Shown here piece by piece: positions 2,901 through 58,353 of a DNA stretch of 64,000 nucleotides. The stretch is from contig CAVFYC010000003.1 of the NCBI GenBank assembly GCA_963626585.1, positions 2,432 to 66,431 of the forward strand, given 5' to 3'. Both the position numbers and the translations under genes were made by a program. A model generated the notes under the pieces. That model was not told the origin of the DNA and did no database searches. It saw only the letters and a list, made by a program, of their open reading frames with translations. Source of the DNA: Christensenellaceae bacterium Phil1 (GTDB lineage: Bacteria > Bacteroidota > Bacteroidia > Bacteroidales > Bacteroidaceae). Positions within the stretch are counted from its first letter, which is position 1, and each line of letters opens with the position of its first letter.

Positions 2901-2992
2901 CAAAAACAACAAGGCTTCTCGTAAAAACTCCGCCGCATCTAATTTAAATTAGATGCGTCGGAATTTAAATTATGTCTGACATCGTTTTTTAC
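2901..2992 (-). repeat. Mosaic palindromic intergenic repeat, copy A (inverted relative to copy B)
   Basis: Plus-strand parse: ACAAGGCTTCT|CGTAAAAACT|CCGCCGCATCT|AATTTAAATT|AGATGCGTCGG|AATTTAAATT|ATGTCTGACAT|CGTTTTTTAC. Words start at 2909, 2930, 2951 and 2972. The copy begins 8 nt after the PAP2 stop. Confidence 0.9.
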
Positions 2993-3295
2993 CCCAAGCG
3001 ATGCCGTTTTTCCTCCTTGTGCACCCCGTCTTTTTTTACCCCACATTCTTTTCCCGAAACACTTTTGTAACATAGATTTAATTGAAAACAAACATCAGCA
3101 TTGCAATTTTGCATCGAATTGTAAAGCGACTCGTGTCAAAAACCGGGTAATTCAACAATTTATCACAGAATTTGTGAAATTGGAAATCAAAAATCAACAC
3201 AGTAAGAATATATTTTGTAATATTGTAACGAAAAGCAAGTATTTGTTATAACGTTGTTAAAATAGAATACTGGGAATTTAACACTCAAAACATAA

Positions 3296-3787
3296 ATGCA
3301 TATGAGAAAAACTTTAGTCACAGTAGTATTCGCAGGGCTTTGCCTAACGGGAGCGTCGGCTCAAGACGTTTTCGTTTACAATGCCGGGAGTGAAAGACCG
3401 CTCCTAACTGTGAACAACTTGCAACGCATCGAGTTTGGTGAAGAGAGCATTTCTTTCTTCCAAACAAATGCTGTCGAAGGCACCCCTGTGGACCTCAACA
3501 GTATTGACTACATGCTCTTCTACGACAGAGAAATTCTGAATTCCGTACGTCCTACGGCAAAATCAGAAGGCGTGAACATCTCTTATGACGGTAGGAACGT
3601 TTCCGTGGAAAGCGTCGAAAACATTTCAAGTATCGACGTGTATTCTTCAGATGGCGTGAAAGTTGCAACTGTATCGCCTAAGGCTAAGAGCGCAAAAGTA
3701 TCTCTTGCTTCCAAACCCGCAGGTGTTTACATCGTGAAGGCAACTGCTGGCAAATCTACGGCAAAAAGTGAAATCGTTAAAAAATGA
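3296..3787 (+). CDS. Small secreted protein with a T9SS (Por) C-terminal sorting domain
   Basis: N-terminal signal peptide (..LTGASAQ). The C-terminus ..SSIDVYSSDGVKVATV..PAGVYIVKATAGKSTAKSEIVKK fits the T9SS CTD pattern. Its stop overlaps the next ATG (ATGA). Confidence 0.7.
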   Translation: MHMRKTLVTVVFAGLCLTGASAQDVFVYNAGSERPLLTVNNLQRIEFGEESISFFQTNAVEGTPVDLNSIDYMLFYDREILNSVRPTAKSEGVNISYDGRNVSVESVENISSIDVYSSDGVKVATVSPKAKSAKVSLASKPAGVYIVKATAGKSTAKSEIVKK

Positions 3788-6700
3788 ACAAGGCCATGAC
3801 ACTCAATCTTATTAAGAAAACACTTCTTGGAGCTGCGTGCATAGCTGTTTTCGGTTTCAACACCAATGCACAGACAATCACCAAGCACATTTACGCTTAC
3901 AAAGACGGCGTGGTAACATTCCGCGCCAACGCAAGCGATGTAGACAGTATAGCACTCGAGGAAAACAAGACCGTGGTTGCGCTCTACAAGCACGGTTCGA
4001 GCACTCCCGTCTACAAGACTAATTATTCCGACATCGACAGTATATCCTTTACAGCTCCCGTGCCGGTGGCTGACATATTGGACGTTATGTTCGACGAAAC
4101 GGGTAACTGTTGGGACAATTCCCCATTGAATCTTCTCGTAACCCCGCTAACAACAAACGGAACGGCAGAAGTTAACTACAACAAGACCTACGAAATGTGG
4201 GAAAGCCATTTCTATGGAGATTCTTGGGGCAGTTCTCCCAAAAACACTTGCTTCAAGGCAGACTATTCCCAGAATGATTACGTTAAGGAGGCACTTTCCG
4301 ACGGCCATTCCATGGAATGTCTCTTCAAGGTGGATTATGACGGCAATATCGTAGACAAAGAAGGAAAATTCTTCGCAGCCCATGAAGGCGGCGGTACAGG
4401 TTTCCTTATCTGCACCAAAGCAAAGAGCCCAAACAATCAGAACGAACTTACATTCCTTCCCAACGTTTCAACAAACGGAAAGAGCAACTGGATTTGGGCA
4501 ACCAGTGGAATTGTTCCGCAGCCCGGAAAATACTATCATTTGGTAGGCGTATATAATAAGGAAGAAGAAAAAGCTTACGTTTATGTTGACGGACAGTTGA
4601 TGAATGTGGTTGATGCAAAAGGCGATTTCCGTCTTCCGTCAAACGAGAAGGCACAATGGTTCGGCATCGGCTGTGATGCAAATACCGGCACCGGCGGCCA
4701 GGCAGTCGACAGCCATGTCGCAATTGCCCGCGTATACGACAAAGCTCTTACTGCAAGCGAAGTAGACGGCCTTTGGAATGAAGTGGCACAAAAATCACAG
4801 CTTCCCGTAGCCGACTTGCTTGATGTGCAATTCACCAAAGACGGCGGCGCAATCGACGTATCGCCGATGAAAAACGAAGTACAGGTTATTTCTCCTACGA
4901 ACAAGATTGAAACCTACTACAATCCTTATTACGGCACGTACGCAGCAAAGATCAACAACACTTGGAGCGGTGCCGTTGCCGACACAAAGACTTACTGCAA
5001 GGTAGATTTTGAGAACAATCAGAAATTCCGCGATGCTCTCGCCGACGGACACACTGTTGAAACCGTATGGAAGGCTACTTACATGGGAGAACTTCCTGAC
5101 AAAGAAGCTAAATGGTTCTCTGCAATGCAGGCAGGCGGTACCGGTTTCCTCATCTGCAAGAAAGCATCAGGCAAAGACGGTGGCAACGAACTTACATTCC
5201 TTCCCAACGTTACCCAGAATGGAAAGAGCAATTGGATTTGGGCAACCAGCGGCGTTGTTCCTGAGGCTGAGAAGTATTACCACATGGTTGGCGTTTGGAA
5301 CAAGGAAGAAGGCAAGGCTTATATCTATGTTAACGGTGAGTTGATGAATACCGTTGATGCGGTGGGCGAACTTAAATTTGCGTCAAGCGGTAGCAATTGG
5401 TGGGGTATCGGTTGTGATGCCAATCCTAAAGGCGGCGAACAAGGCGGTAATTGGGAAATTGTAAACGCTCGTGTATACGACAGCCCGCTTACCGAACACG
5501 AGGTTGCCAATCTTTGGAACAATATTGCCACTGCCACAAAACTTGCAGACGACTCCGTAGCAAAGAATCAGGTTAATCCCGAAGATACAGTTACTGTTCC
5601 AGCTCCTAAGGCTGATTTGATGGATATTGAATTCGGTCCTAACGCAGAAGTAAAAGACGTTGCAGTTCCTGACCACAATCCTACGTGGATGGTAAAAGGC
5701 CAAGCTTGGACTGGCGGAGATGTTGATGATATTTCCAACGCTCCTCTTACTTACTACAACAGCGAATACAACCGTTACGTTGCTCGTTTCGACAATAACT
5801 ATGGTTATAAGCCCAGTCTTTACATTCTTGGTTATGATTATGAGAACGACCAGGCTTTCCAAGATTCCATTGCAGACGGACATACTCTTGAAATTCTCGT
5901 AATGCAGGATAACAGCGATGCAGTTCTCGGCAGAGAGATTAAACCATTCAGCTCGCACGAGGGCGGTGGTACCGGTCTGATGATTGAAACTGCCGGCGAC
6001 TGGACATTCCTTCCCAATACAGGTTCATACGTTTGGTCTACGAGTGGAGTATATCCCAAGCAGAAACAATACTATCACGTGGTTGGCGTATATAATAAGG
6101 AGGAGCAAACCGCTTCGGTGTATGTTGACGGCGTGCTTAAGAACACTGTTCCTGCTACGGGCAACTTCAAGTTTGCTTCAAGCGGTTGCTTGAGAATGAT
6201 TGTCGGTGGCGACCCCGATGGTAGCGATTACAAAGCCAACAATGGCTGGAAGGGCGACATTGTGTTTGCCAAGGCTTACAGCGCACCGCTTACAACTCCG
6301 CAGGTTAAGGCTCTTTACAAAGAAATTGAGGCTTCCAAAGCATCTGCTTCCACTTTCGTAACCGATTACAGCTACAACAATGGCATTGCAGTAAAGAGCG
6401 GCGCTCCGTTTGCTATCACCGGCAAGGGCTTCCAGAGTGGCGACCAAATTATATTCTCCGACGGAACAAACGAAGTGTCTGCTCCCGTAACTGTTACTTC
6501 TACCGGCGCTGAGGTTAACCTTTTCGACGGAATCGTTAACGACAAACGTTATATCATCTACGTTCAGCGTGGCGACAAGAAGCAAACGCTCGGCATGTGC
6601 AAGTTCTTCGTTACCGACGAGTTGCCTCAAGGAACAAAGGTAATTGCTCACCGCGGACATTGGAATGTTACTGGCGCTGCACAAAACTCCAGAGCTTCTC

Positions 6701-7359
6701 TCAAGAACGCTATTGATGTTCACTGCTATGGTTCTGAAACCGATGTATGGCTCACTACCGACGGCAAACTGATGGTTAATCACGATGCTTCATACAACGG
6801 CGTAACTATCAAGGACGCTACATCGGAACAGTGCAAGGCCCTCACACTTTCAAACGGCGAAAGCATGCCCGAAATCACTGATTTCCTTAGCATGATTGCT
6901 GCTGAAAACTGGACAACCGACACAACTAAGCTCATCATCGAGATTAAGGACCACGGAACAGACGAACTCAACACTTTGGCTGCACAAACGCTTGTAAATG
7001 CAGTTTACGAAGCTGATGTTGCCGACAGAGTGGAATACATATCGTTCAGTCTAACGGCTTGCAAGGCTCTCCACGAGGCTGACAGCGATGCCAAAGTTGC
7101 TTATCTCAGTGGCGACAAGACTCCGCAGGAACTCAGCGACCTCGGTCTCACTGGACTCGACTACACGCTTGCTAAGTATACAGGCAATCCTACTTGGATT
7201 AGCGAGGCTCGCGAGCTTGGCTTGACAACAAACGTGTGGACAATCGACAGCACCGACGAGATTATCAAGAGCAACAACCTTGGCATTGACTTCATCACTA
7301 CCAACAATCCTGTTGAAGCTACAAAATACTTGAACTACTATATGAATCTTAACAAATAA
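3784..7359 (+). CDS. Secreted multidomain protein: three LamG/ConA-like lectin modules, a TIG-like domain and a C-terminal glycerophosphodiester phosphodiesterase (GDPD)
   Basis: Signal peptide. Three ~245-aa paralogous modules start at about nt 4063, 4801 and 5602, with shared blocks HEGGGTGFLIC, ELTFLPN, KSNWIWATSG, KYYH.VGV.NKEE, GIGCDAN. The GDPD motifs VIAHRGHW..ENS.., GSETDVW.T.DG..MVNHD start at about nt 6634. Confidence 0.85.
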   Translation: MNKAMTLNLIKKTLLGAACIAVFGFNTNAQTITKHIYAYKDGVVTFRANASDVDSIALEENKTVVALYKHGSSTPVYKTNYSDIDSISFTAPVPVADILDVMFDETGNCWDNSPLNLLVTPLTTNGTAEVNYNKTYEMWESHFYGDSWGSSPKNTCFKADYSQNDYVKEALSDGHSMECLFKVDYDGNIVDKEGKFFAAHEGGGTGFLICTKAKSPNNQNELTFLPNVSTNGKSNWIWATSGIVPQPGKYYHLVGVYNKEEEKAYVYVDGQLMNVVDAKGDFRLPSNEKAQWFGIGCDANTGTGGQAVDSHVAIARVYDKALTASEVDGLWNEVAQKSQLPVADLLDVQFTKDGGAIDVSPMKNEVQVISPTNKIETYYNPYYGTYAAKINNTWSGAVADTKTYCKVDFENNQKFRDALADGHTVETVWKATYMGELPDKEAKWFSAMQAGGTGFLICKKASGKDGGNELTFLPNVTQNGKSNWIWATSGVVPEAEKYYHMVGVWNKEEGKAYIYVNGELMNTVDAVGELKFASSGSNWWGIGCDANPKGGEQGGNWEIVNARVYDSPLTEHEVANLWNNIATATKLADDSVAKNQVNPEDTVTVPAPKADLMDIEFGPNAEVKDVAVPDHNPTWMVKGQAWTGGDVDDISNAPLTYYNSEYNRYVARFDNNYGYKPSLYILGYDYENDQAFQDSIADGHTLEILVMQDNSDAVLGREIKPFSSHEGGGTGLMIETAGDWTFLPNTGSYVWSTSGVYPKQKQYYHVVGVYNKEEQTASVYVDGVLKNTVPATGNFKFASSGCLRMIVGGDPDGSDYKANNGWKGDIVFAKAYSAPLTTPQVKALYKEIEASKASASTFVTDYSYNNGIAVKSGAPFAITGKGFQSGDQIIFSDGTNEVSAPVTVTSTGAEVNLFDGIVNDKRYIIYVQRGDKKQTLGMCKFFVTDELPQGTKVIAHRGHWNVTGAAQNSRASLKNAIDVHCYGSETDVWLTTDGKLMVNHDASYNGVTIKDATSEQCKALTLSNGESMPEITDFLSMIAAENWTTDTTKLIIEIKDHGTDELNTLAAQTLVNAVYEADVADRVEYISFSLTACKALHEADSDAKVAYLSGDKTPQELSDLGLTGLDYTLAKYTGNPTWISEARELGLTTNVWTIDSTDEIIKSNNLGIDFITTNNPVEATKYLNYYMNLNK

Positions 7360-7390
7360 GTCAAGGCTTAGATTCAAGTAAATATCAACT

Positions 7391-7433
7391 AATCGGGAGG
7401 GAACTTTTTAAGGTTTTCTCCCGATTTTATTTA
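7391..7433 (+). terminator. Putative intrinsic terminator after the LamG-GDPD gene
   Basis: AATCGGGAG (7391-7399) pairs with CTCCCGATT (7418-7426), followed by TTTATTTAT. Confidence 0.6.
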
Positions 7434-7469
7434 TGCTTGATTGTTAGGGATTTATATTTTGCCAAATTT

Positions 7470-7562
7470 TGCTTTTCCGATGTCAGACATAATTTAAATT
7501 CCGACGCATCTAATTTAAATTAGATGCGTCGGAGTTTTTACGAGATGCCTTGTAGTTTTTTT
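7470..7562 (+). repeat. Mosaic palindromic intergenic repeat, copy B (reference orientation)
   Basis: ATGTCAGACAT|AATTTAAATT|CCGACGCATCT|AATTTAAATT|AGATGCGTCGG|AGTTTTTACG|AGATGCCTTGT+AGTTTTTTT. Words start at 7480, 7501, 7522 and 7543. Positions 7501-7532 are a perfect 32-nt palindrome. Confidence 0.92.
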
Positions 7563-7710
7563 GCCCATTCGCTCCTTATTGCGAAAGCCGCAGGACAATC
7601 TGTCTCGCGCCTTTATATTTCGTACGCATAACCCTAACTTTTTCTCCCGAAACAAGCCCGCGACGTGCAAATAGGCAACACCTTTGTGCGTGAAAGCCAA
7701 GAAAAAAACG

Positions 7711-7718
7711 TATATTTG
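7711..7718 (+). promoter_or_regulatory. Bacteroidetes-type -7 box TATATTTG upstream of sucC
   Basis: Matches the TAnnTTTG consensus, 33 nt before the sucC ATG. A TTTG lies upstream at 7683-7686. Confidence 0.6.
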
Positions 7719-7750
7719 CCATAAAATAAAGGACAAATCATAAAAATGAA

Positions 7751-8899
7751 ATGAAAGTACACGAATATCAAGCAAAAATGCTATTCAAGAATTATGGTCT
7801 GCCGGTAGTTGACCAGAATATTCTTTGCCGCACGGTTGACGAAGCCGTAGAGGCATACAGAACCATTGGCGAAGAATACGTTGTGGTCAAGGCTCAGGTT
7901 CATACCGGCGGCCGCGGAAAAGCCGGCGGCGTGAAACTCGCAAAAAGCGAGGACGAAGTGCGCCAATATGCCGGAGCAATTCTTGGAATGGACATAAAAG
8001 GCTTCAAGGTAGACAGAGTGCTCATAACCCAAGCCGTTGACATTGCAGCAGAATACTATGTGAGCATAATTGTAGACCGCAAAACAAAATGCCCAATATA
8101 TATGGTGAGCCGCGCCGGAGGTATGGATATCGAACAGGTGGCTCGCGAAACTCCCGAGAAAATCGAGAAAATAGCTATCGACCCGCTTTTGGGCGCCACA
8201 GACTTCAAGACGCGCGAAGTTGCCTATGCCTTGTTTGACGACAAAGCAGTGGTGAAACAAGCAGTGCCATTGTTGAAAAACCTCTACAAGATGTTTGTTG
8301 AAACCGATGCGTCGCTCGCCGAAATCAATCCGCTCGTCCTTACAAAACAAGGAGAACTCAAAGCGATTGATGCAAAGATGACGTTCGACAACAACGCACT
8401 CTTTCGCCACCCCGAACTGATGCAGTTTAACGAGCCCACCGAAGAGGAGAAAATAGAACAGACTGCAAAATCCAAAGGTTTCAGCTATGTAAACCTTGGA
8501 GGCGAGATAGGCTGCATGGTAAACGGCGCCGGACTCGCAATGGCAACAATGGACATGATTAAACTCTATGGCGGCAGCCCTGCAAACTTCCTTGACATCG
8601 GCGGAAGCTCCAATCCCGAAAAGATAGTGGAGGCAATGAAACTCTTGCTCGCCGACAAACACGTAAAGGTGGTATTGATAAACATCTTCGGCGGAATCAC
8701 CCGTTGCGACGACGTGGCAAAGGGACTCCTCGAAGCATTTGAAATACTCAAGACCGAAATGCCAATCGTAATCCGACTCACCGGAACAAACGAAAAAGAA
8801 GGACAGGAAATCCTCAAAGGCACAAAATTCACCGTGGCAACCACTATGGGCGACGCCGGAAGAAAAGCCGTGGAACTCGCAGCCCAAGTGGCAAAATAA
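7751..8899 (+). CDS. sucC: Succinyl-CoA synthetase (ADP-forming) beta subunit
   Basis: MKVHEYQAKMLFKNYGLPV.. ATP-grasp N-terminus; full-length 382 aa; followed by sucD. Confidence 0.95.
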   Translation: MKVHEYQAKMLFKNYGLPVVDQNILCRTVDEAVEAYRTIGEEYVVVKAQVHTGGRGKAGGVKLAKSEDEVRQYAGAILGMDIKGFKVDRVLITQAVDIAAEYYVSIIVDRKTKCPIYMVSRAGGMDIEQVARETPEKIEKIAIDPLLGATDFKTREVAYALFDDKAVVKQAVPLLKNLYKMFVETDASLAEINPLVLTKQGELKAIDAKMTFDNNALFRHPELMQFNEPTEEEKIEQTAKSKGFSYVNLGGEIGCMVNGAGLAMATMDMIKLYGGSPANFLDIGGSSNPEKIVEAMKLLLADKHVKVVLINIFGGITRCDDVAKGLLEAFEILKTEMPIVIRLTGTNEKEGQEILKGTKFTVATTMGDAGRKAVELAAQVAK

Positions 8900-14474: not shown

Positions 14475-16130
14475 ATGAATTTCAGGGGAAAGGAATACAA
14501 TCTGTCAACTATTTTGCCTTGGATTGGCAAAGCGGTGAGGCATTACAAACTGAAGATATGCGCTACAATTATATTGGGCTGGATTGTTGTTGCACTGAAC
14601 TTTGTTTTTGTGTGGGCAACAAAGCAGGCTGTCGATGCGGCAACGGTAACCCACAACCGTTGGGCGCTTTATTTTTGCTGTGCAACGCTTGTAGCCACGA
14701 TAATAGTGCAGGCTGTGGTTTCGGCAATCAACAAACGAATAAAAACAATGCTCGGTTTCTGCATGAACAGGCGTATGCAGGAAAGGCTGTTGCATCATGC
14801 GGTTTCGGTTAACTGGAAAAGCATCAACGAATACCATACCGGCGACCTTGTGAGGCGTTTTGAGCAGGACGGATACGAGGTCGTTTCGTTTGTGAACGGA
14901 ACAATTCCAACTATAATGCTTGTGTTGCTGCAATTGGCAGGCGCTTTTCTTTTTCTCCTTGTTTTGAACAAGCAAATAGCCCTTGCCCTTGTTGTGATAA
15001 TGCTTGCTGGCGTGTTTATAAGCAAGTTTCATTTTTTGAAAATCCGTGGGTTTTCGGCCAAAATCAAGGAAGGCGGAAGCATGTTGCAGGCTGCTTTGCA
15101 GGAGGGGCTGCAAAATATTTCCGTGCTCAAGTCTTTGGCGGGCAAGAACGTATTTGCGAAATACTATTCCCATATCTTCGACATACAAGAAGGCAATGTG
15201 AGGCGACGCCTCCGGTATTCCGTGTTGTCGTCAACGGTTTTGAACCTCGGTTTTGCGGCTTGCTATCTTTTTGTCTTCATCTGGGGAGTGTTTAATCTCG
15301 ATTCGGGCGCAATTACCTACGGCACACTTATGGCATTCGTGCAGCTGGTGGGGCAGATACAAGGACCTTCGCGCACGCTCATCAATTCCATTTCAGATTT
15401 TGCCGAGTTTTATTCTTCGTGTGAGCGGTTGAATGAAATCGACTCCATACCTGCCGAAGACGATGCCGAATGTGTGAACGACGTAAAGGCAAGTTGTAGT
15501 GTGCTTTGTGAGAAAGTGTCGTATCGATATGCCGACGGCAAACGAATGGTATTGGACGGATTCAGCCATAGTTTTGAACCAGGAAAACTCAGCGCCATTG
15601 TCGGTGCAACGGGAGCGGGAAAAACCACGCTCATGCGCCTTTTGCTTGCCTACGTCAAGCCTTATGCGGGGAAACTGTATGTAGTGAGCGGAGATGAAAA
15701 GCGGGAGATAGGAGTTGGAACGCGCGGGTTGTTTGCCTATGTGCCTCAGGGGAATTCCTTGTTCAGCATGTCGTTGCGCGACAATATGCTTTTGGCAAAT
15801 CCCGAAGCGTCGGACGCTGAAATGCTTGAGGCCATGAAATGGGCGTGCGCCGATTTTGTGGAACACAATGCCGAGGGGCTCGACACACTCTGCGGCGAGG
15901 GAGGCAGAGGTCTGTCGCAGGGCCAGGCGCAACGCTTGTGCATAGCCCGGGCTTTGGTTTCGCGCGCCCCGATATTGCTGATGGACGAATCGACATCGGC
16001 TTTGGACCACGCCACAGAGGAGAAAATCATTCAGAACATACGCCAAAATGTGAAAGACAAGACTATTCTTTTCATCACCCACCGCGACACTGTGATAAAA
16101 TACGCCGATGAGGTGGTGAAAATAGGCTAA
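14475..16130 (+). CDS. ABC transporter, fused permease/ATP-binding (MsbA-like exporter)
   Basis: N-terminal 6-TM domain; Walker A GATGAGKTT, signature LSQGQAQR, Walker B LLMDES. ATG 14475 is preferred over the overlapping ORF-track start at 14394. Confidence 0.88.
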   Translation: MNFRGKEYNLSTILPWIGKAVRHYKLKICATIILGWIVVALNFVFVWATKQAVDAATVTHNRWALYFCCATLVATIIVQAVVSAINKRIKTMLGFCMNRRMQERLLHHAVSVNWKSINEYHTGDLVRRFEQDGYEVVSFVNGTIPTIMLVLLQLAGAFLFLLVLNKQIALALVVIMLAGVFISKFHFLKIRGFSAKIKEGGSMLQAALQEGLQNISVLKSLAGKNVFAKYYSHIFDIQEGNVRRRLRYSVLSSTVLNLGFAACYLFVFIWGVFNLDSGAITYGTLMAFVQLVGQIQGPSRTLINSISDFAEFYSSCERLNEIDSIPAEDDAECVNDVKASCSVLCEKVSYRYADGKRMVLDGFSHSFEPGKLSAIVGATGAGKTTLMRLLLAYVKPYAGKLYVVSGDEKREIGVGTRGLFAYVPQGNSLFSMSLRDNMLLANPEASDAEMLEAMKWACADFVEHNAEGLDTLCGEGGRGLSQGQAQRLCIARALVSRAPILLMDESTSALDHATEEKIIQNIRQNVKDKTILFITHRDTVIKYADEVVKIG

Positions 16131-16189
16131 AGGCTTTTCTTTCACTATATTATGGTTTTATAATTCCCATTGTTGTTTGCAGCATAATA

Positions 16190-16213
16190 GCCCGTCTAAA
16201 ACGGGCGTTTTTT
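16190..16213 (+). terminator. Intrinsic terminator after the ABC exporter
   Basis: GCCCGT-CTAAA-ACGGGC followed by GTTTTTT. Confidence 0.7.
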
Positions 16214-16215: not shown

Positions 16216-16309
16216 GGCTTTTACGAGGTCAGACATAATTTAAATTCCGCCGCATCTAATTTAAATTAGATGCGGCGGAGTTTTTACGAGATGCCTTGTA
16301 GTTTTTCCC
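16216..16309 (+). repeat. Mosaic palindromic intergenic repeat, copy C
   Basis: GGCTTTTACG|AGGTCAGACAT|AATTTAAATT|CCGCCGCATCT|AATTTAAATT|AGATGCGGCGG|AGTTTTTACG|AGATGCCTTGT. Words start at 16226, 16247, 16268 and 16289. Both palindrome arms carry a matched substitution. Confidence 0.92.
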
Positions 16310-26442: not shown

Positions 26443-26534
26443 AGCAAAAACTCCGACGCATCTAATTTAAATTAGATGCGTCGGAATTTAAATTTGGTGG
26501 CCCGGAGTTTTTACGAGAAGCCTTGTTGTTTTTT
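26443..26534 (+). repeat. Mosaic palindromic intergenic repeat, copy D
   Basis: AGCAAAAACT|CCGACGCATCT|AATTTAAATT|AGATGCGTCGG|AATTTAAATT|TGGTGGCCCGG|AGTTTTTACG|AGAAGCCTTGT+TGTTTTTT. Words start at 26453, 26474, 26495 and 26516. Confidence 0.92.
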
Positions 26535-32195: not shown

Positions 32196-32291
32196 AGATG
32201 CGTTGTCGTAAAAACTCCGGGCCATGTAATTTAAATTAGATGCGTCGGAATTTAAATTAGGTCTGATATCGTTTTAAAACATGTCTGACCT
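32196..32291 (-). repeat. Mosaic palindromic intergenic repeat, copy E
   Basis: AGATGCGTTGT|CGTAAAAACT|CCGGGCCATGT|AATTTAAATT|AGATGCGTCGG|AATTTAAATT|AGGTCTGATAT|CGTTTTAAAAC|ATGTCTGACCT. Words start at 32196, 32217, 32238, 32259 and 32281. It lies in the divergent ileS/regulator gap. Confidence 0.88.
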
Positions 32292-36678: not shown

Positions 36679-36780
36679 CTATCGGACATCGTTTTTACGA
36701 TGTCCGATAGTGTTTAAATTATGTCTGACATCGTTTAAATTATGTCAGACATAGTTTTTGTGATATCAAATGTAGTTTTC
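36679..36780 (+). repeat. Mosaic palindromic intergenic repeat, copy F (variant vocabulary)
   Basis: CTATCGGACAT|CGTTTTTACG|ATGTCCGATAG|TGTTTAAATT|ATGTCTGACAT|CGTTTAAATT|ATGTCAGACAT|AGTTTTTGTG|ATATCAAATGT. Words start at 36679, 36700, 36721, 36742 and 36763. Positions 36678-36711 form a perfect 14-bp stem. Confidence 0.8.
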
Positions 36781-40911: not shown

Positions 40912-41016
40912 CGCGAAAACGATGTCTGACATAATTTAAATTCCGACGCATCTAATTTAAATTAGGTCTGACCTAGTTTTTACGATATCAGATGTTTTTT
41001 CAAAAAGATGCCTTGT
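40912..41016 (+). repeat. Mosaic palindromic intergenic repeat, copy G
   Basis: CGCGAAAACG|ATGTCTGACAT|AATTTAAATT|CCGACGCATCT|AATTTAAATT|AGGTCTGACCT|AGTTTTTACG|ATATCAGATGT|TTTTTCAAAA|AGATGCCTTGT. Words start at 40922, 40943, 40964, 40985 and 41006, each exactly 21 nt apart. Confidence 0.92.
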
Positions 41017-45391: not shown

Positions 45392-45475
45392 TGATTTTAC
45401 GACATCGGATATCGCGAAAACTAGGTCAGACATAATTTAAACTAGGTCTGATATAATTTAAACTAGATGCCTTGT
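45392..45475 (+). repeat. Mosaic palindromic intergenic repeat, copy H (AATTTAAACT spacer variant)
   Basis: TGATTTTACG|ACATCGGATAT|CGCGAAAACT|AGGTCAGACAT|AATTTAAACT|AGGTCTGATAT|AATTTAAACT|AGATGCCTTGT. Words start at 45402, 45423, 45444 and 45465. Confidence 0.85.
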
Positions 45476-51211: not shown

Positions 51212-51284
51212 AGCGGCAAACGAGACTCGGACTCGCGACCTCAACCTTGGCAAGGTTGCGCTCTACCAACTGAGCTATTGCCGC
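51212..51284 (-). tRNA. tRNA-Gly (anticodon GCC)
   Basis: Minus strand reads GCGGCAATAGCTCAGTTGGTAGAGCGCAACCTTGCCAAGGTTGAGGTCGCGAGTCCGAGTCTCGTTTGCCGCT. It folds as a cloverleaf with a 7-bp acceptor stem and anticodon loop TTGCCAA; CCA is not encoded. Confidence 0.9.
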
Positions 51285-51316
51285 ATTTCGTGCAGTGCAT
51301 TTCTCTAAATGCGATG

Positions 51317-51466: not shown

Positions 51467-51580
51467 GGGTTTTACGAGATGCGTTTGGCGCTTTTACGAG
51501 GTCAGACATAATTTAAATTCCGACGCATCTAATTTAAATTTCATGGCCCGGAGTTTTTACGAGATGCCGTGTTGTTTTTG
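51467..51580 (+). repeat. Mosaic palindromic intergenic repeat, copy I
   Basis: GGGTTTTACG|AGATGCGTTTG|GCGCTTTTACG|AGGTCAGACAT|AATTTAAATT|CCGACGCATCT|AATTTAAATT|TCATGGCCCGG|AGTTTTTACG|AGATGCCGTGT. Words start at 51477, 51499, 51520, 51541 and 51562. There is no complementary word pair. Confidence 0.9.
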
Positions 51581-51717: not shown

Positions 51718-53019
51718 ATGAACAAGATTGGAATTGTTGTAAGACGTGAGTTCGGGTATAGGGTGAAAAAACGCTCCTTTATTATTCTTACTATATTAAT
51801 GCCGTTTCTTATGGCGGCGGTGGTAATGGTGCCTTTGTTGCTGTCTTCGCTGAAAGGCGAGGAAGTAAAGGAAGTTGTGGTGGTGGACCATACCGGAATG
51901 TATGCCCCTTGTTTCAAAAGCGATGGCAACTTTAAATATATAGTAGGCGACCGCATGCGCTCGGAATACCGCGAAGAGGAAAATGAAACCTATGCCGTGG
52001 TTTCGATATGGGACGATTTGACAAAAGATCCAACTGCTGCGCGGATTTATTCCAAGAAAGAGGTGTCTTCCGACCTGCTAAGGGCTGTGAATAATGTGTT
52101 GGGACAGAAAATCAAGGATCAAAAACTGTCGGCTTTCAATATCCCGGGATTGAACGACGTGGTGAAGCAATGCGAAGAGGGGTATGAAATACGCACTGTT
52201 AAGTGGTCGGACAACGGAGATGAGAAAGAGTCGAATACAGATGTGGCCATGTTTGTAGGAATATTCTTTACAATACTTATATATATGTTTGTGCTAACCT
52301 ACGGCACAATGGTGATGCAAAGCGTTACCGAGGAAAAATCTAACAGAATAGTGGAATTGATGGTGTCGTCGGTAAAGCCTTTCACGTTGATGATGGGAAA
52401 AATCATAGGTGTGGCACTCGTGGGCTTGCTTCAAATGATGATTTGGGGAGTGATGCTTTTCGTTATTCTCGGAATTGTTGGCGTGGCGTTTGGAGTAGGC
52501 GACGTTTCGCTGCTTGGCGCCGGCGGTGTGAACGCAATGGGGGCAGATGCCGTGCAAAACGCTGATGCGGCGCAGATATTCCATGTGTTAAGAGGAATGA
52601 ACTTCGTGGAAATAATATTGATGGTTGTAGTTTATTTCATAGGCGGCTATTTATTATATGCGTCCTTCTTTGCAGGCGTGGGCTCGGCTATCAATTCAAG
52701 CGAAGACACGGGGCAGTTTGTCGCTCCCACTATGGTGGTGATGGCGTTTGCTCTGTATGCCGGAATGTTCAGCATAGAAAATCCCGACGGCTCGCTCGCT
52801 TTTTGGTGCTCCATGATTCCGCTCACTTCGCCGATTGTAATGATGGTGCGCATACCTTTCGGCGTTCCTTTGTGGCAGGAAATCGTGTCGGTGGTGCTGC
52901 TTTATTTTACGGCAATATCTATGGTGTGGATTGCAGGAAGGATTTATCGCGTGGGCATACTGATGTATGGAAAGAAACCGTCGATTGTGGAACTCTTGAA
53001 GTGGGTGAAGTATAAATGA
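51718..53019 (+). CDS. ABC-2 type transporter permease (NatB-like)
   Basis: N-terminal TM helix, ~150-aa extracytoplasmic loop, then 5-6 C-terminal TM helices (..SVTEEKSNRIVELMVSSVKPF..). Confidence 0.8.
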   Translation: MNKIGIVVRREFGYRVKKRSFIILTILMPFLMAAVVMVPLLLSSLKGEEVKEVVVVDHTGMYAPCFKSDGNFKYIVGDRMRSEYREEENETYAVVSIWDDLTKDPTAARIYSKKEVSSDLLRAVNNVLGQKIKDQKLSAFNIPGLNDVVKQCEEGYEIRTVKWSDNGDEKESNTDVAMFVGIFFTILIYMFVLTYGTMVMQSVTEEKSNRIVELMVSSVKPFTLMMGKIIGVALVGLLQMMIWGVMLFVILGIVGVAFGVGDVSLLGAGGVNAMGADAVQNADAAQIFHVLRGMNFVEIILMVVVYFIGGYLLYASFFAGVGSAINSSEDTGQFVAPTMVVMAFALYAGMFSIENPDGSLAFWCSMIPLTSPIVMMVRIPFGVPLWQEIVSVVLLYFTAISMVWIAGRIYRVGILMYGKKPSIVELLKWVKYK

Positions 53020-53064
53020 GTGGCAATATGTGGAAATTACTTTCCCTGTGTCGGAAAAATAAAT

Positions 53065-53072
53065 TACTTTTG
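53065..53072 (+). promoter_or_regulatory. -7 box TACTTTTG upstream of purB
   Basis: TAnnTTTG match, 19 nt before ATG 53091. Confidence 0.55.
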
Positions 53073-53090
53073 CACTTAAAATAGAACACA

Positions 53091-54440
53091 ATGGAATTGG
53101 ATATATTGAATGCTGTAAGTCCGGTTGACGGACGCTATCGCGCAAAGAGCGAACCTCTTTCACCCTATTTCTCGGAATACGCATTGATAAAGTATCGCGT
53201 GAAAGTTGAAATCGAGTATTTTATTTGGCTTTGCGAGATGCCGTTGCCTCAGCTCAAGGATTTCAACAGCAACAACTTTGCTGCGCTTAGAAGCATCTAC
53301 CAGAATTTCTCGGAAACCGACGCACAATCGGTGAAAGAGATAGAAAAGACCACCAACCACGACGTGAAGGCCGTGGAATATTTCATCAAAGGAAAATTTG
53401 ACGAGATAGGCGGTATGGAAGACTTCAAGGAGTTTATCCATTTCGGGCTTACATCACAAGATATAAACAACACGTCTTTCCCGATGATGATAGGCGATGC
53501 AATTAAAGAGGTATTCGCTCCGGAAGTTCAGGCTCTTGTTGACAAACTGAACGGCTTGGCTGAAGAATGGAAGGGCATTCCTATGCTCGCTCACACTCAT
53601 GGACAGCCTGCTTCGCCCACTCGTCTTGGCAAAGAGATAAAAGTTTTCGCCTATCGCCTGGAACGTCAGTTTGAGCAACTGAAAGGTTTGAAAATAACGG
53701 CGAAATTCGGCGGCGCAACGGGTAATTTCAACGCTCATCATGTGGCTTATCCCGAAATAGACTGGAAAGCGCAGGCTAATAAGTTCCTTGAAGAACGCCT
53801 CGGGCTTGAACGCGAACAATATACCACACAGATTTCCAATTACGACGGACTTGCTGCCGTTTTGGACGCATTGAAGCGCATCAATACGGTAATCATGGAT
53901 CTCGATCGCGACTTCTGGACGTATATCTCCATGAACTATTTCAAACAGAAGATTAAACAAGGCGAAGTTGGCAGTTCTGCAATGCCCCATAAAGTGAATC
54001 CTATAGATTATGAGAACTCTGAAGGAAACCTCGGCGTGGCAAATGCACTCTACGAGCATCTTTCGAGAAAACTTCCGCTTTCGCGTCTGCAAAGAGACCT
54101 TACCGATAGCACTGTGATACGTAATCTTGGAGTGCCGATGGCTCATTCCATTATCGCAATCAAGAGTACGCTCAAAGGTCTCGATAAACTTTTGTTGCAT
54201 CGCGAGTCGATTGACGCCGATCTGGAAAACAATTGGGAAGTTGTGGCAGAAGCAATACAGACAATCCTGCGCCGCGAACGTTTCCCGCACCCTTATGAAA
54301 CGTTGAAAGCCTTGACGCGAACCAACAAGAAGATAAATCAGCAGGATATCGCAGAATTTATAAACGGACTCGATATTCGCGACGAAGTGAAGGCAGAACT
54401 TCTGAAAATAACCCCACAAAATTATGTGGGAATATTCTGA
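53091..54440 (+). CDS. purB: Adenylosuccinate lyase
   Basis: ..VDGRY.., ..HFGLTSQDINNT.., signature GSSAMPHKVNP. Confidence 0.95.
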   Translation: MELDILNAVSPVDGRYRAKSEPLSPYFSEYALIKYRVKVEIEYFIWLCEMPLPQLKDFNSNNFAALRSIYQNFSETDAQSVKEIEKTTNHDVKAVEYFIKGKFDEIGGMEDFKEFIHFGLTSQDINNTSFPMMIGDAIKEVFAPEVQALVDKLNGLAEEWKGIPMLAHTHGQPASPTRLGKEIKVFAYRLERQFEQLKGLKITAKFGGATGNFNAHHVAYPEIDWKAQANKFLEERLGLEREQYTTQISNYDGLAAVLDALKRINTVIMDLDRDFWTYISMNYFKQKIKQGEVGSSAMPHKVNPIDYENSEGNLGVANALYEHLSRKLPLSRLQRDLTDSTVIRNLGVPMAHSIIAIKSTLKGLDKLLLHRESIDADLENNWEVVAEAIQTILRRERFPHPYETLKALTRTNKKINQQDIAEFINGLDIRDEVKAELLKITPQNYVGIF

Positions 54441-54506
54441 AGCGAAAACAAAGACAAATACGCCGAAAAATGGCGTTAATATATTAATTAAATAAATTAA
54501 TCCGTG

Positions 54507-55823
54507 ATGGACAACGAAGAGAAAATCAATCAGGAAAGTAACGGACAAAATCCGCGCTCCAATGCAAATGCAGGCGGTGTTCGTTATAAGAAAGTGAATG
54601 TGTATGATGGCGGTAATGCTTTCGACCGTCAGGATAGCCGCCCCTCATATCGTGGCAATAGCTATGGACGTGAACAGGGACGAAACTATCGTGGTTATCG
54701 TGAAAACAGCTATGGTAGAAACGAAGGCAATCGTCAAGGAGGAAGTGCCTATCGCCATGACAACAACGCCGGATATGGACGTGGCTATAACGGTTATGGA
54801 AATTCCGAACGCTATCAGCAGGAACGCCCCAGCCGTAATTATTCGTCGCAAGAGCGATACGGATATTCGCGTGGCGGATATAGTGGCGGTTCCTACCAAG
54901 ATCGTAGCGAACGTTACGGTCAACCGCAGGGATATGGCGAACGCCGTAGCGGAAGATACGAATATCAGCCGCGCAGAGACAGTTATGGTCGTGGCGGTGC
55001 CCCGCGTCAGCAGCGTTCCAACAATTATGGCGGTGGATACAACCCGGATGCAAAATATTCTTTGCGTAAGAGAATACAATACGCCGAAGAGAATTTTGAT
55101 CCCGAAGCACCAATTCGTTTGAATAAGTTTTTGTCGAACGCCGGCGTTTGTTCACGTCGTGATGCCGACAAATATATAACAGCTGGTGTGGTAACTGTAA
55201 ACGGCGAAACGGTAACAGAACTCGGCTCAAAGATTAAACGTAGTGATGTCGTGCGTTTCAATAACGAAACCGTCTCGATAGAAAAGAAAGTTTACGTACT
55301 TCTCAATAAACCCAAGGATTATGTAACAACGAGCGACGATCCTCAAAATCGTAAGACGGTTATGGATCTTGTGCGCAACGCTTGCCGTGAGAGAATTTAC
55401 CCGGTTGGTCGTCTCGACAGGAATACTACGGGTGTTCTTCTCCTTACAAATGATGGTGAATTGGCTTCTAAACTTACTCATCCCAAATACAAGAAGAAAA
55501 AAATCTATCATGCTTTTCTCGATCACAATGTGAATGCGGCCGACATGCAGCAGATTGCGAACGGTATCATGCTTGATGACGGCGAGGTGCATGCCGATGC
55601 CATAGAGTATGCTTCCCAAACAGACAAAAAGCAGGTTGGCATAGAAATCCACAGCGGAAAGAATCGTATTGTGCGTCGTATTTTCGAAAGCTTGGGATAT
55701 CATGTAACCAAACTCGACAGAGTTTATTTTGCCGGGCTTACCAAGAAAAATTTGCGTCGCGGTCAATGGCGTTATCTCTCGCAGGAGGAAGTGAATTATC
55801 TGAAAATGGGAGAATTTGAATAA
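54507..55823 (+). CDS. RluB/RsuA-family pseudouridine synthase with a ~190-aa N-terminal Arg/Gly/Tyr-rich low-complexity extension
   Basis: S4 domain ..IRLNKFLSNAGVCSRRDADKYI..; catalytic ..GRLDRNTTGVLLLTNDGEL... The N-terminus consists of repeated YGR/RGG/SYG units. Confidence 0.88.
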   Translation: MDNEEKINQESNGQNPRSNANAGGVRYKKVNVYDGGNAFDRQDSRPSYRGNSYGREQGRNYRGYRENSYGRNEGNRQGGSAYRHDNNAGYGRGYNGYGNSERYQQERPSRNYSSQERYGYSRGGYSGGSYQDRSERYGQPQGYGERRSGRYEYQPRRDSYGRGGAPRQQRSNNYGGGYNPDAKYSLRKRIQYAEENFDPEAPIRLNKFLSNAGVCSRRDADKYITAGVVTVNGETVTELGSKIKRSDVVRFNNETVSIEKKVYVLLNKPKDYVTTSDDPQNRKTVMDLVRNACRERIYPVGRLDRNTTGVLLLTNDGELASKLTHPKYKKKKIYHAFLDHNVNAADMQQIANGIMLDDGEVHADAIEYASQTDKKQVGIEIHSGKNRIVRRIFESLGYHVTKLDRVYFAGLTKKNLRRGQWRYLSQEEVNYLKMGEFE

Positions 55824-55870
55824 TTGGTGTAATTGCGTAAAGCGTTAACTATTAATCAAAGTAGAATAAT

Positions 55871-57268
55871 ATGTACAAGTCAAGAATTAAGATTGTAGAT
55901 CTTCTCAAGAGTGAGGATTTTGACAAGGTTGTTAATGTGAAAGGCTGGGTTAGAACTCGCCGTGGCAGCAAGTCTGTTAATTTTATCGCGCTTAATGACG
56001 GCTCTACAATAAAGAATATACAGGTGGTGGCTGACGTGAACGATTTTGACGAGGAATTGCTTAAACAGATAACCACTGGTGCTTGTTTGAGCGTTGACGG
56101 AAAACTTGTCAAGAGCATTGGCGGCGGTCAGAGCGTGGAAGTGCAAGCTACGAAAATCGAGGTTCTCGGTCCTTGCGGCGATGATTTCCCGATGCAGAAG
56201 AAAGGGCAGAGTTTTGAGTACATGCGTAAGTACGCTCACATGCGTCTCCGTACAAATACATTCGGCGCAGTTTTTCGCATACGCCACAACATGGCAATTG
56301 CAATCCACAAATATTTCCACGAACATGGCTTCTATTATTTCAATACGCCTATAATCACGGCAAGTGATTGCGAGGGCGCGGGCGAGATGTTTCAAGTTAC
56401 TACGCTTGACCTCAACCGTACGGGAAAAGACGGCGATGTTGCATACGACAGAGACTTCTTCGGAAAGAAAACAAGCCTTACGGTGAGCGGACAGCTTGAA
56501 GGAGAACTTGGTGCAACGGCTTTGGGAGCTATCTATACGTTCGGTCCTACGTTTCGTGCTGAGAATTCCAATACTCCGCGCCATTTGGCAGAGTTTTGGA
56601 TGATTGAGCCGGAAATTGCTTTCATGGATCAGACGGAATTGATGGATTTGGAAGAGGATTTCATCAAATATTGTGTGAACTGGGCTTTGGAAAATTGCAA
56701 GGACGACCTTGAATTCCTCAACAAGATGATTGACAAAAATCTTCTCGAAACGCTTAATTCTGTTGTCAAGGAGGATTTTGTTCGTCTGCCTTATACCGAG
56801 GGAATCAATATTCTTGAGAAAGCGGTTAAAGACGGTCATAAATTCGAATTCCCAATCACGGGTTGGGGCATGGATTTGAGCAGCGAGCACGAACGTTATC
56901 TGGTGGAGGAGTATTTCAAACGTCCTGTGATTATGACGGATTACCCGAGCGAAATCAAGGCGTTTTATATGAAGAAAAATCCCGACGGCAAGACGATGCA
57001 GGGTACCGATGTGCTTTTCCCGAGAATTGGCGAAATCATTGGCGGTTCGGTGCGCGAGGAAGATTACGACAAACTTGTTGGCGAAATCAAGGCTCGCGGA
57101 ATGGAAGAGGACAGTTACAGTTGGTATCTTGATACGCGCAAGTTTGGCAGTTGCCCGCATGCAGGTTTCGGCTTGGGCTTTGAGCGCCTCATTCTGTTTG
57201 TTACCGGCATGCAGAACATACGCGACGTGATTCCGTTCCCTCGTACTCCGAAGAATGCAATGTTCTAA
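55871..57268 (+). CDS. asnS: Asparaginyl-tRNA synthetase
   Basis: OB-fold N-terminus; class II motifs (..[21 protein letters not shown].., ..GFGLGFERL). Confidence 0.95.
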
Positions 57269-57290
57269 GAGAAAATAATTTCAAGAGTTA

Positions 57291-57334
57291 AAAATGCGGT
57301 GTGCAATGTTTTGCGCGCCGCATTTTTTGTTTTG
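57291..57334 (+). terminator. Intrinsic terminator after asnS
   Basis: AAAATGCGG (57291-57299) pairs with CCGCATTTT (57318-57326), followed by TTGTTTT. Confidence 0.65.
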
Positions 57335-57394
57335 CAAAGTTTGTGGCTTAATTTATATAGGTAATTTTGCCTCGCAATAAAATTTGGCGGTGTT

Positions 57395-58144
57395 ATGAAA
57401 ATGTTTCTAAGGTGTTTTCTTTTGGCATTGGTCTTTAATTCGTTTAATGCCGTTTTTGCCCAACTTGTAGTGAAAGGAAAGATTACCGATTCTGACGGCG
57501 CAGCGGTGGAGTTTGCTAATGTTTGTGTCGACAGCATTTATGTGATGTCTGATGCCAAGGGAAATTTCAAGATAAACGTGCCTCAAGGGATTAAAACGCC
57601 TATACAGGTGAGCCATATAAGCTATGAAACTGTTGATGTGGGTTATGCTGAATACAAAGGCGGAACTGTTTCTGTGGTGATGAAACCTCGCAGCAACCAA
57701 CTGCCGGATGTGGCTGTGGTAGGTGGGAAATCCAAGGCAAAGAGAATTGTGATCAAAGGAATGAAAATGCCCGGAGACGTAGCTTTCTCGGGTACCACTA
57801 CGGGAATGTATGCATATGGTCCGATTTTTAAGGTAAAGAAGAATTTTCTGGTCGATTCCATAAAATTTACGGTCTACGAATGCACTTATTCCGAGTGTTT
57901 GCTGCGCGTGATTATCTATGAAGAGAGCGGCAAGAACTTTGTTCCGGTGATGTCGAAGCCATTGTACGTGTCGTGTACGCCTTCGCAAAACGGCAAAGAC
58001 TTGGTTGTGGCGGTTGACGACCGCACTCTGTTGCAAAAAGGCCGTGTTTATTACGCTGCGCTCTGTCCTGTTTCAAGTACGGGAAAAGGAAAAGTGAGTT
58101 TTCGTGCCTATGCCCATAAAGGTTGTGCCTGGAATATAGACTAA
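57395..58144 (+). CDS. Carboxypeptidase-regulatory-like (CarboxypepD_reg) domain protein, secreted
   Basis: Signal peptide; ..VVKGKITDSDGAAVEFANVCV.. is typical of the N-terminal CarboxypepD_reg fold. Confidence 0.6.
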   Translation: MKMFLRCFLLALVFNSFNAVFAQLVVKGKITDSDGAAVEFANVCVDSIYVMSDAKGNFKINVPQGIKTPIQVSHISYETVDVGYAEYKGGTVSVVMKPRSNQLPDVAVVGGKSKAKRIVIKGMKMPGDVAFSGTTTGMYAYGPIFKVKKNFLVDSIKFTVYECTYSECLLRVIIYEESGKNFVPVMSKPLYVSCTPSQNGKDLVVAVDDRTLLQKGRVYYAALCPVSSTGKGKVSFRAYAHKGCAWNID

Positions 58145-58239
58145 CAACATACTGTAAAAAATCCCGGTTTCGATGGCAGCCGTTCTTGTAGGGAGAGAAA
58201 TGCTGTAAGGGGAATAAATACAATAAGTTAAGCCTTGTA

Positions 58240-58270
58240 AACACATTCTCCAAGAATGTGTTTTTTCTTT
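58240..58270 (+). terminator. Intrinsic terminator
   Basis: AACACATTC-TCCAA-GAATGTGTT followed by TTTTCTTTT. Confidence 0.65.
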
Positions 58271-58353
58271 TGCCGCATTTCGTGAAAACGATGTCAGACA
58301 TAATTTAAATTCCGACGCATCTAATTTAAATTAGGTCTGACATCGGAAAAACG
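58270..58353. repeat. Mosaic palindromic intergenic repeat, copy J (symmetric form)
   Basis: (TTGCCGCATTT)|CGTGAAAACG|ATGTCAGACAT|AATTTAAATT|CCGACGCATCT|AATTTAAATT|AGGTCTGACAT|CGGAAAAACG. Words start at (58270), 58291, 58312 and 58333. Confidence 0.88.

Follow-up and report, generated by a model that had tools for sequence, protein, structure and literature searches.

Intergenic arrays of 11-bp words on a 21-bp lattice in a 64-kb stretch of a Bacteroidales genome

The window analysed here, a stretch of 64,000 nucleotides of contig CAVFYC010000003.1, contains ten copies (arrays A–J) of a short palindromic repeat family in the gaps between its genes. The genes found include sucCD, ruvC, pdxJ, ileS, serS, asnS, secG, lptE, leuA/CD and others, and the window also carries genes of the type IX secretion system (T9SS), BatD and SusR-like genes. 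The nearest named matches of the window SucC are Prevotella and Hoylesella proteins (76–77% identity). Judged from its sequence, the DNA comes from an uncultured member of the Bacteroidales with affinity to the Prevotellaceae. Pfam and NCBIfam scans of about 50 open reading frames (ORFs) of the window detected only housekeeping genes and no mobility domain, in agreement with an earlier sequence-only reading that had found neither a transposase nor an integrase in the window.

The same reading had placed ten copies of the repeat in the window, in both orientations and exclusively outside the genes. All ten arrays were recovered, each between long ORFs (10/10), and both orientations are present. 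The gap types are also as assigned before: the gaps of A, B, C, D, H and J are co-directional, those of E, G and I are divergent (I faces tRNA-Gly), and that of F is convergent. The arrays are listed below with window coordinates, no strand being assigned, and with their words and linkers in order; z is the score of the array folded as single-stranded DNA against shuffles.

Array A, 2901..2992, T-end left: caaaaaca ACAAGGCTTCT cgtaaaaact CCGCCGCATCT aatttaaatt AGATGCGTCGG aatttaaatt ATGTCTGACAT cgttttttac; z = -3.4
Array B, 7470..7562: tgcttttccg ATGTCAGACAT aatttaaatt CCGACGCATCT aatttaaatt AGATGCGTCGG agtttttacg AGATGCCTTGT agttttttt; z = -7.3
Array C, 16216..16309: ggcttttacg AGGTCAGACAT aatttaaatt CCGCCGCATCT aatttaaatt AGATGCGGCGG agtttttacg AGATGCCTTGT agtttttccc; z = -7.5
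Array D, 26443..26534: agcaaaaact CCGACGCATCT aatttaaatt AGATGCGTCGG aatttaaatt TGGTGGCCCGG agtttttacg AGAAGCCTTGT tgtttttt; z = -5.1
Array E, 32196..32291, divergent gap: AGATGCGTTGT cgtaaaaact CCGGGCCATGT aatttaaatt AGATGCGTCGG aatttaaatt AGGTCTGATAT cgttttaaaa c ATGTCTGACCT; z = -2.4
Array F, 36679..36780, convergent gap: CTATCGGACAT cgtttttacg ATGTCCGATAG tgtttaaatt ATGTCTGACAT cgtttaaatt ATGTCAGACAT agtttttgtg ATATCAAATGT agttttc; z = -9.5
Array G, 40912..41016, divergent gap: cgcgaaaacg ATGTCTGACAT aatttaaatt CCGACGCATCT aatttaaatt AGGTCTGACCT agtttttacg ATATCAGATGT tttttcaaaa AGATGCCTTGT; z = -3.6
Array H, 45392..45475: tgattttacg ACATCGGATAT cgcgaaaact AGGTCAGACAT aatttaaact AGGTCTGATAT aatttaaact AGATGCCTTGT; z = -0.5
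Array I, 51467..51580, divergent gap by tRNA-Gly: gggttttacg AGATGCGTTTGG cgcttttacg AGGTCAGACAT aatttaaatt CCGACGCATCT aatttaaatt TCATGGCCCGG agtttttacg AGATGCCGTGT tgtttttg; z = -0.9
Array J, 58270..58353: TTGCCGCATTT cgtgaaaacg ATGTCAGACAT aatttaaatt CCGACGCATCT aatttaaatt AGGTCTGACAT cggaaaaacg; z = -5.7

The arrays take most of the large inter-operon gaps. By our own count, 15 gaps measure 100 bp or more and 10 of them have an array; among the 9 that reach 240 bp or more, 8 have one. Array H fills most of its 145-bp gap. The ten copies together account for about 1.5% of the window. The 11-mers and linkers quoted in the earlier reading proved to be essentially confined to the arrays. The pattern AATTTAAATT-N11-AATTTAAATT gives 9 matches with at most two mismatches, vs 0 in 100 dinucleotide-preserving shuffles. 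The word CCGACGCATCT gives 13 matches (at most one mismatch, both strands) vs 0.99 expected, and 12 of the 13 lie inside arrays. Exact words are all within arrays; the single match in coding sequence carries one mismatch.

The arrays without exception follow a strict 21-bp lattice, made of 11-bp words that alternate with 10-bp A/T-rich linkers. One copy consists of 3–6 units and is about 95 bp long. The inner linker is the palindrome AATTTAAATT, and the outer linker reads AGTTTTTACG or, as the reverse complement of this, CGTAAAAACT. Among the words, many are palindromic (ATGTCWGACAT) or form inverted pairs. The arrays of the window and of 44 tiles of CAVKYH01, a metagenome-assembled genome (MAG) of a sister species, were parsed together (72 arrays). 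Usually the end word S comes first, followed by one or two inner words, the end word T and then a T-run. The S word is AGGTCWGACCT or ATGTCWGACAT and is palindromic, and the T word is AGATGCCKTGT. The inner words form a vocabulary of about ten, and each consists of two 5-bp halves about a central base: CCGAC-G-CATCT, CCGGG-C-CATGT, CCGGG-C-CACCA, CCAAG-G-CATCT, and their complements.

The linkers beside the three-word core were compared in 67 arrays. Of these, 33 have an A-run to the left of the core and a T-run to its right, with outer linkers of inverted polarity and often with inverted T words; 22 are polar, and 0 show the reverse arrangement. Many arrays are bounded by the inverted T words ACAAGGCATCT ... 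AGATGCCTTGT. According to the alignment of 57 ends, conservation fades 8–10 bp past the T word into the T-run. Among about 140 pairs of adjacent words, only about 22 are palindromic, with direct as well as inverted order seen, and the 11+10 period is kept even between words unable to pair. Therefore, the invariant feature of the family is the 11+10 lattice and not the fold.

A second sub-family uses ATGTCWGACAT words only, with the same 21-bp period. Array F, which has variants such as CTATCGGACAT and ATATCAAATGT, belongs to it, and array H belongs partly. The palindrome of this sub-family extends to about 19 bp as AACAATGTCWGACATTGTT, and its linkers are such as TATTTAAACA or TGTTTGAATA. About 18 arrays of this kind are present in the sister-species tiles. 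Besides window 36679-36780, examples are at L012 6377, L015 3170, L035 2508 and L088 1202, among others.

In order to follow the change of the arrays, window positions 1-45,200 with arrays A–G were compared with 6–10 strains of the same species, at 98–99% average nucleotide identity (ANI), and with a sister clade at 93–94% ANI. The site and the register of arrays A–G are identical in every strain compared (7/7 at 93–94% ANI), and no filled/empty polymorphism was observed at either distance. The sites are thus unchanged through at least 6% genome divergence. As all seven arrays keep their site at 93–94% ANI, there is no sign of recent transposition. The sequence-only reading had proposed to judge mobility by whether related genomes carry the copies at orthologous sites with a divergence like that of their flanks. 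The first part was found, in 7/7 copies at 93–94% ANI and in all 6–10 strains at 98–99%, so that mobility receives no support. The second part was not found: the words are hypervariable and the linkers are conserved, as given by the divergence of each class.

Words: 25% against the 93% ANI strain, 6.1% against the 98% ANI strain
Linkers: 7.2% against the 93% ANI strain, 0.7% against the 98% ANI strain
Other intergenic DNA: 11.8% against the 93% ANI strain, 2.6% against the 98% ANI strain
Coding DNA: 6.2% against the 93% ANI strain, 2.0% against the 98% ANI strain

Relative to other intergenic DNA, divergence is about twofold faster in the words and slower in the linkers. The changes of the words are whole-word replacements, flips, and indels of 21 or 42 bp. 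Array A keeps its site in the 98% and 93% ANI strains with words swapped. In array B, a paired A>C / T>G change preserves the palindrome at 98% ANI, and two words are replaced at 93%; paired A/C and T/G changes likewise preserve the palindrome of array C. The third word of array D changes from TGGTGGCCCGG to ATGTCTGACAT in six 98% ANI strains, and at 94% ANI its palindromic pair CCGACGCATCT/AGATGCGTCGG is replaced by the pair CCAAGGCATCT/AGATGCCTTGG. In array E, the 94% ANI strain shows an exact inversion, from AGATGCGTCGG to CCGACGCATCT, of the word enclosed by two AATTTAAATT linkers. In array F, it is the linker between inverted words that is exactly inverted, from CGTTTTTACG to CGTAAAAACG, in strains L177, L178 and L182. 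Exactly 42 bp (two units) of array G is missing in strain L174, and in the same array the 94% ANI strain carries an additional unit of about 22 bp and shows one word replacement. These results show that the arrays are a resident intergenic family, the units of which exchange, flip and duplicate while the sites stay. The scaffold gaps (N-runs) of two NCBI MAGs lie exactly inside arrays, namely array G in L179 (about 16,100-16,210) and array F in L180. Evidently, short-read assemblies of this species are broken or mis-joined at the repeats.

The family was then placed among related genomes. In a scan of one genome per GTDB species, more than 44 8-kb tiles of the MAG CAVKYH01 have the vocabulary of the window. 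All 67 of the 67 arrays examined in this sister species are between genes according to crude longest-ORF calls: 27 are in co-directional gaps, 17 in divergent gaps and 13 in convergent gaps, and 10 are at tile edges. Gene ends are not preferred. Among the matches listed, several CAVIQL01 tiles and one CAVKJJ01 tile have the linker of the window with different words, including CCAAGGCTTGG and TCGCCGCATCT/AGATGCGGCGA. Isolated matches among those listed are in Alloprevotella and Prevotellamassilia, and the remainder are chance matches in A/T-rich genomes. CAVIQL01 (L007, L011, L079-L081) is titled 'Clostridiaceae bacterium Marseille-Q4149'; it carries this Bacteroidales-type repeat family at 42–48% GC, and its 'Clostridiaceae' label looks doubtful.

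The same array grammar, with other linkers and word sets, is present in at least four further lineages. In L093/L233, L240/241 and L244/245 (SucC identity 86–87% or SecG identity 80–81%), the grammar is that of the window, the linkers are ATTTTAAAAT or ATTTYGAAAT, and the words are, for example, ACAAGGCACTT/AAGTGCCTTGT. The words ATGTCTGACAT and AGGTCAGACAT and the ACAAGGCA core are unchanged in these lineages. CAVIQL and CAVKJJ likewise retain the S word and the T core. No array was found in 15–17 kb of L236/237 (SucC 89%, GC 56%) and of L242/243 (SecG 88%), and none within 10 kb of sucC in relatives with a SucC identity of 80% or less. An array is located upstream of the operon of a sigma-54 activator, lptE and secG in three lineages (window 32196-32291; L240 about 7130-7230; L244 about 7140-7230), with a different gene on the opposite side, and sucC is likewise preceded by an array both in L093 and in the window. 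As most large gaps are occupied, these common sites may be a coincidence.

Eight of the ten arrays fold far better than their shuffles as single-stranded DNA (z from -2.4 to -9.5). The commonest form of the arrays, an A-run, a G+C hairpin and a T-run, is formally a bidirectional terminator, and arrays B and C give terminator-like scores. Hairpins with T-runs are also found outside the arrays, as are -7 boxes:

7391-7426, plus strand: canonical hairpin and T-run terminator, just upstream of array B
16190-16206, plus strand: canonical hairpin and T-run terminator, immediately upstream of array C
58240-58269, plus strand: hairpin and T-run aacacattctccaagaatgtgttttttc, directly upstream of array J
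7711: -7 box of sucC, beyond array B, conserved in a sister lineage
32127 (minus strand) and 32326 (plus strand): -7 boxes around array E, both outside the array

With terminators directly upstream, arrays B, C and J begin within a few bases of an existing T-run. The motif TAnnTTTG, which we take to be the Bacteroidetes -7 box, is located outside the arrays, 20–40 bp ahead of start codons. We therefore rejected the arrays as promoters, since the -7 boxes lie next to the start codons. As terminators adjoin the arrays and the -7 boxes are outside, the arrays occupy the space that separates a terminator from the promoter after it, or two promoters placed back to back.

We consider it somewhat better than an even chance that the arrays are a resident, non-coding and non-autonomous mosaic repeat on a 21-bp lattice, which is homogenised by short-patch conversion and acts at the DNA level. 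On this reading they are neither an RNA gene, nor an uptake sequence, nor an active miniature transposon with inverted repeats (MITE). Short-patch gene conversion or template switching between copies would homogenise the family, and the invariant linkers would serve as the anchors of conversion. Because the linkers are palindromic and many words are inverted pairs, flips of a word or a linker would be possible. Such conversion would lead to one linker per genome, to different linkers in sister lineages, and to hypervariable words without recent transposition. More tentatively, the arrays may act on DNA as phased palindromic sites or as cruciforms. Consecutive words are two helical turns apart on the same face, which would fit the cooperative binding of a sequence-specific dimeric protein, and the A/T-centred palindromes could extrude cruciforms or form hairpins in read-through RNA. 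The original dispersal was presumably due to a trans-acting enzyme recognising ATGTCWGACAT and ACAAGGCA, words conserved across lineages. Since the S and T words are identical across lineages in which other intergenic DNA cannot be aligned, some trans-acting protein probably reads them. This protein might be a transposase that formerly spread the family, or else a nucleoid or topology factor of the host.

Several points weigh against this explanation. Arrays H and I show no significant fold. The mode of action of the arrays is something that we infer. Conservation of the linkers could come from conversion alone, without selection, and the 33:0 asymmetry of the linkers could be a founder effect. 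The strain comparison spans about 45 kb of the window, with arrays A–G. The arrays are not indispensable, because L236/237 and L242/243 are without them in 15–17 kb. Intrinsic curvature was also considered as a basis; the curvature predicted by a wedge model over 84 bp is 40 degrees for the arrays, 34 for other intergenic DNA and 26 for coding DNA, and this modest rise was rejected as too weak.

The likeliest alternative, though we judge it unlikely, is a chromosomal device selected by the host. The arrays would be phased docking sites for a nucleoid-associated protein or a topoisomerase, or supercoil-absorbing cruciforms, and by analogy with gyrase and IHF at bacterial interspersed mosaic elements (BIMEs), they might insulate neighbouring transcription units. 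The spacing of palindromic words by 21 bp, two helical turns, and the palindrome of about 19 bp in the ATGTCWGACAT sub-family are consistent with this idea. So are the near-saturation of large inter-operon gaps of all three types, the position of the arrays upstream of promoters and downstream of terminators, the linkers better conserved than other intergenic DNA, and the identical S and T words in lineages at only about 80% SecG identity. However, two close lineages have no arrays, most words are lineage-specific and freely exchangeable, and the curvature is only weakly raised. In a bolder reading, which we rate as improbable, the arrays would be the cis half of an undescribed chromosome-organising system in a Prevotellaceae-related clade, with a conserved, sequence-specific dimeric protein polymerising on the phased palindromes (ATGTCWGACAT, ACAAGGCA...) of almost every inter-operon gap. 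If this were true, the protein complexes would insulate transcription units or buffer supercoiling; each gap would owe a combinatorial identity to its exchangeable words, and a conversion process, either dedicated or driven by palindromes, would do the reshuffling.

It is likewise improbable that the arrays are an active MITE or a REPIN-like element, moved in trans by an enzyme of the RAYT/Y1 type (RAYT, the transposase associated with repetitive extragenic palindromic, or REP, sequences) or by a DDE enzyme with several subterminal binding sites of 21–22 bp, as in Tn7 or Mu, the gene for which would be elsewhere in the genome; the uniformity within a genome would then reflect recent bursts of transposition. 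Such an element would account for the high copy number in intergenic DNA only, for the inverted T words bounding many arrays with conservation fading 8–10 bp beyond, for the patchy presence among close lineages, and for two words conserved across lineages like a transposase recognition site. However, the insertion polymorphism of a MITE is not seen, as arrays A–G are at fixed sites in all strains sampled. The ends are fuzzy A/T-runs with no recognisable target duplication; no consistent direct repeat is visible in the 57 aligned ends with their A/T-run flanks, no explicit search for target-site duplications having been made. The window has no mobility gene. A tblastn search of about 2 Mb of fetched loci for Y1/RAYT enzymes gave no real match with IS200 TnpA and RAYT queries, and this is a weak test; the single weak match was rejected, being out of frame within a pyrF-like gene. 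Viral contigs contain no copy of the family, and 50 of 50 matches there are chance matches in A/T-rich genomes, without family words.

Elements acting on RNA, either (bidirectional) intrinsic terminators or hairpins stabilising 3' ends that were amplified for use at gene ends, are very unlikely: in spite of the strong hairpins in 8/10 arrays, the A-run left and T-run right of the core in 33 arrays and never the reverse, and the paired changes that preserve the central palindrome, 17 of 57 arrays (30%) are in divergent gaps with nothing to terminate, canonical terminators already adjoin B and C and a hairpin with a T-run precedes J, the good hairpin and T-run of array A are on the wrong strand, no fold is seen for H and I, the strict 11+10 period is kept even where words cannot pair, and there is no Rfam match. 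The Rfam search gave tRNA-Gly alone, whether the gathering or permissive E-value thresholds were applied; among the arrays, the highest-scoring match is mir-725, with 24 bits vs a gathering threshold of 76 and E = 1.3.

Some further observations concern the surroundings of the arrays. Open frames that cross arrays have common peptides, for example NLNSDASNLN and FKLDASEFKL, as the sequence-only reading had noticed. In related contigs, public gene calls of 44–54 aa without a Pfam match are located at or beside arrays (L002 4147-4311, minus strand; L233 9574-9723, minus strand; L233 12115-12249, plus strand), and they are likely spurious ORFs made by the repeats. The 15-mer TTGCCGCATTTCGTG is present at window 51278-51292, in the 5' flank of tRNA-Gly, and at 58270-58284, the outer word of array J. 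A link of array J with tRNA-Gly was rejected, as about 4 such pairs per 64 kb are expected by chance. In a close array-free lineage, L242 7139-7494 contains four repeats GACACGTGT...CACAATC with a period of about 22 bp, in the gap upstream of the gene for the sigma-54 activator; the motif is unrelated to the arrays and may represent regulator binding sites. L043 2622-2900, of an uncultured Bacteroidales MAG, contains about 15 tandem 21-bp units of TAAATTTTAC and GAGCTACAATC and variants, a true minisatellite with different words and an equal period. Within the window, a gene for a 1191-aa Laminin_G_3/GDPD protein contains copies of about 265 bp at 4354-4616 and 5098-5360 (about 77% identity, secondary BLAST matches), which presumably reflect domains repeated inside the protein.

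If the window is typical, about 1.5% of the genome and roughly a quarter of its intergenic DNA belong to one repeat lattice, at a density above that of BIMEs in E. coli; by extrapolation, the genome would have a few hundred copies. The arrays give rise to spurious small ORFs in public annotation and to broken short-read MAG assemblies. They are also hypervariable strain markers at fixed loci, in which concerted evolution is visible at the resolution of single words, as swaps, flips and 21-bp slippage. Two words and a 21-bp grammar conserved across lineages point to a protein partner; in gut or oral Bacteroidales, a domesticated transposase and a nucleoid protein are both candidates for this role.

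The sequence-only reading compared the repeats with REP/BIME, Correia-type and uptake-sequence repeats and did not recognise a described family. The likeness to the REP/BIME type holds, and the other two were not sustained. DNA uptake sequences (DUS/USS) are one 9–12-mer over-represented genome-wide, in coding DNA and in gaps; the words here are confined to arrays and not spread through coding DNA. Correia/NEMIS elements are 100–155 bp long, with 26-bp terminal inverted repeats and a TA duplication; the aligned ends contain no long terminal inverted repeat, the TA duplication not having been searched for explicitly. CRISPR loci have repeats of 23–50 bp, unique spacers of similar length, and cas genes; here the repeat is 10 bp, the 11-bp 'spacers' come from a vocabulary of about ten words, and 3–6 units are present at hundreds of loci. 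That the family was not recognised agrees with our searches: Rfam gave no match to the arrays, and no paper containing the words was found in the searchable literature, where searches with the linker and the 11-mers returned only primer coincidences. Searches on REP, MITE and RAYT/REPIN sequences of Bacteroidales and Prevotella returned only BrickBuilt and a survey of GTAG/CGTC REPs, and neither matches.

BIMEs (Gilson/Bachellier) are reportedly high-copy extragenic mosaics of palindromic units and conserved linker motifs with hairpin potential. The arrays resemble them as a strictly extragenic mosaic with a small linker set, several configurations, both orientations and hairpin potential. They differ in their units of 11 bp vs 35–40 bp, in the rigid 21-bp lattice, and in words standing direct or inverted, where BIMEs alternate regularly. 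The arrays have no GTAG or unpaired CGTC tag and no sequence similarity to BIMEs, and their host belongs to another phylum. No RAYT was found for the arrays in the 64-kb window or in the loci of about 2 Mb, the latter a weak test.

In Neisseria NIMEs, the 20-bp inverted repeats dRS3 alternate with RS units of 50–150 bp. Here also a constant short palindrome alternates with variable units of limited repertoire, and both systems are intergenic and recombination-prone. NIME arrays are much longer, whereas both parts are about 10 bp here and strictly phased, with unrelated sequences. The BOX elements of Streptococcus pneumoniae (boxA-boxB(n)-boxC) are present in more than 100 copies in a genome of about 2 Mb and show strong predicted folding, and they are not known to have a mobilising enzyme. 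They share with the arrays a modular intergenic structure, a variable number of internal modules and predicted folding. The BOX modules are 45–59 bp in the fixed order A-B-C, whereas the arrays have 21-bp units with about ten interchangeable words.

GTAG/CGTC REPs are imperfect palindromes of 20–40 bp with an unpaired 4-nt tag at one end, a stem of 8–9 bp or 5–13 bp, a loop of 2–20 nt and a CCA tail; CGTC REPs are reported in Bacteroidetes without a dedicated transposase, and dRS3 is equated with CGTC-1 REPs (PMC3733652). The arrays are likewise short palindromic intergenic repeats. The architecture of tag, stem, loop and CCA tail is absent from them: no GTAG is present, CGTC is present only within the paired word AGATGCGTCGG, and the stems are 11 bp plus linker, unlike the tag, stem and short loop of REPs. 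The BrickBuilt MITE, of which Porphyromonas gingivalis has only about 19 copies, contains tandem repeats of 23 nt that are nearly identical and have no spacers, leader and tail segments of 285–318 bp, and IS5-type 12-bp terminal inverted repeats GAGACCTTTGCA (PMC4596501). The arrays differ from it in their 21-bp period of word and linker and in having no leader, no tail and no GAGACCTTTGCA terminal repeat. The two are alike in that both are found in Bacteroidales, are always intergenic and have a short-period repeat with a copy number varying by locus and strain. Closest to the arrays are BIMEs, the NIMEs of Neisseria, the BOX elements of pneumococci and, within the Bacteroidales, BrickBuilt; with Dfam and ISfinder outside the comparison, the arrays are lineage-specific, apparently undescribed mosaic intergenic repeats of the REP/BIME kind.

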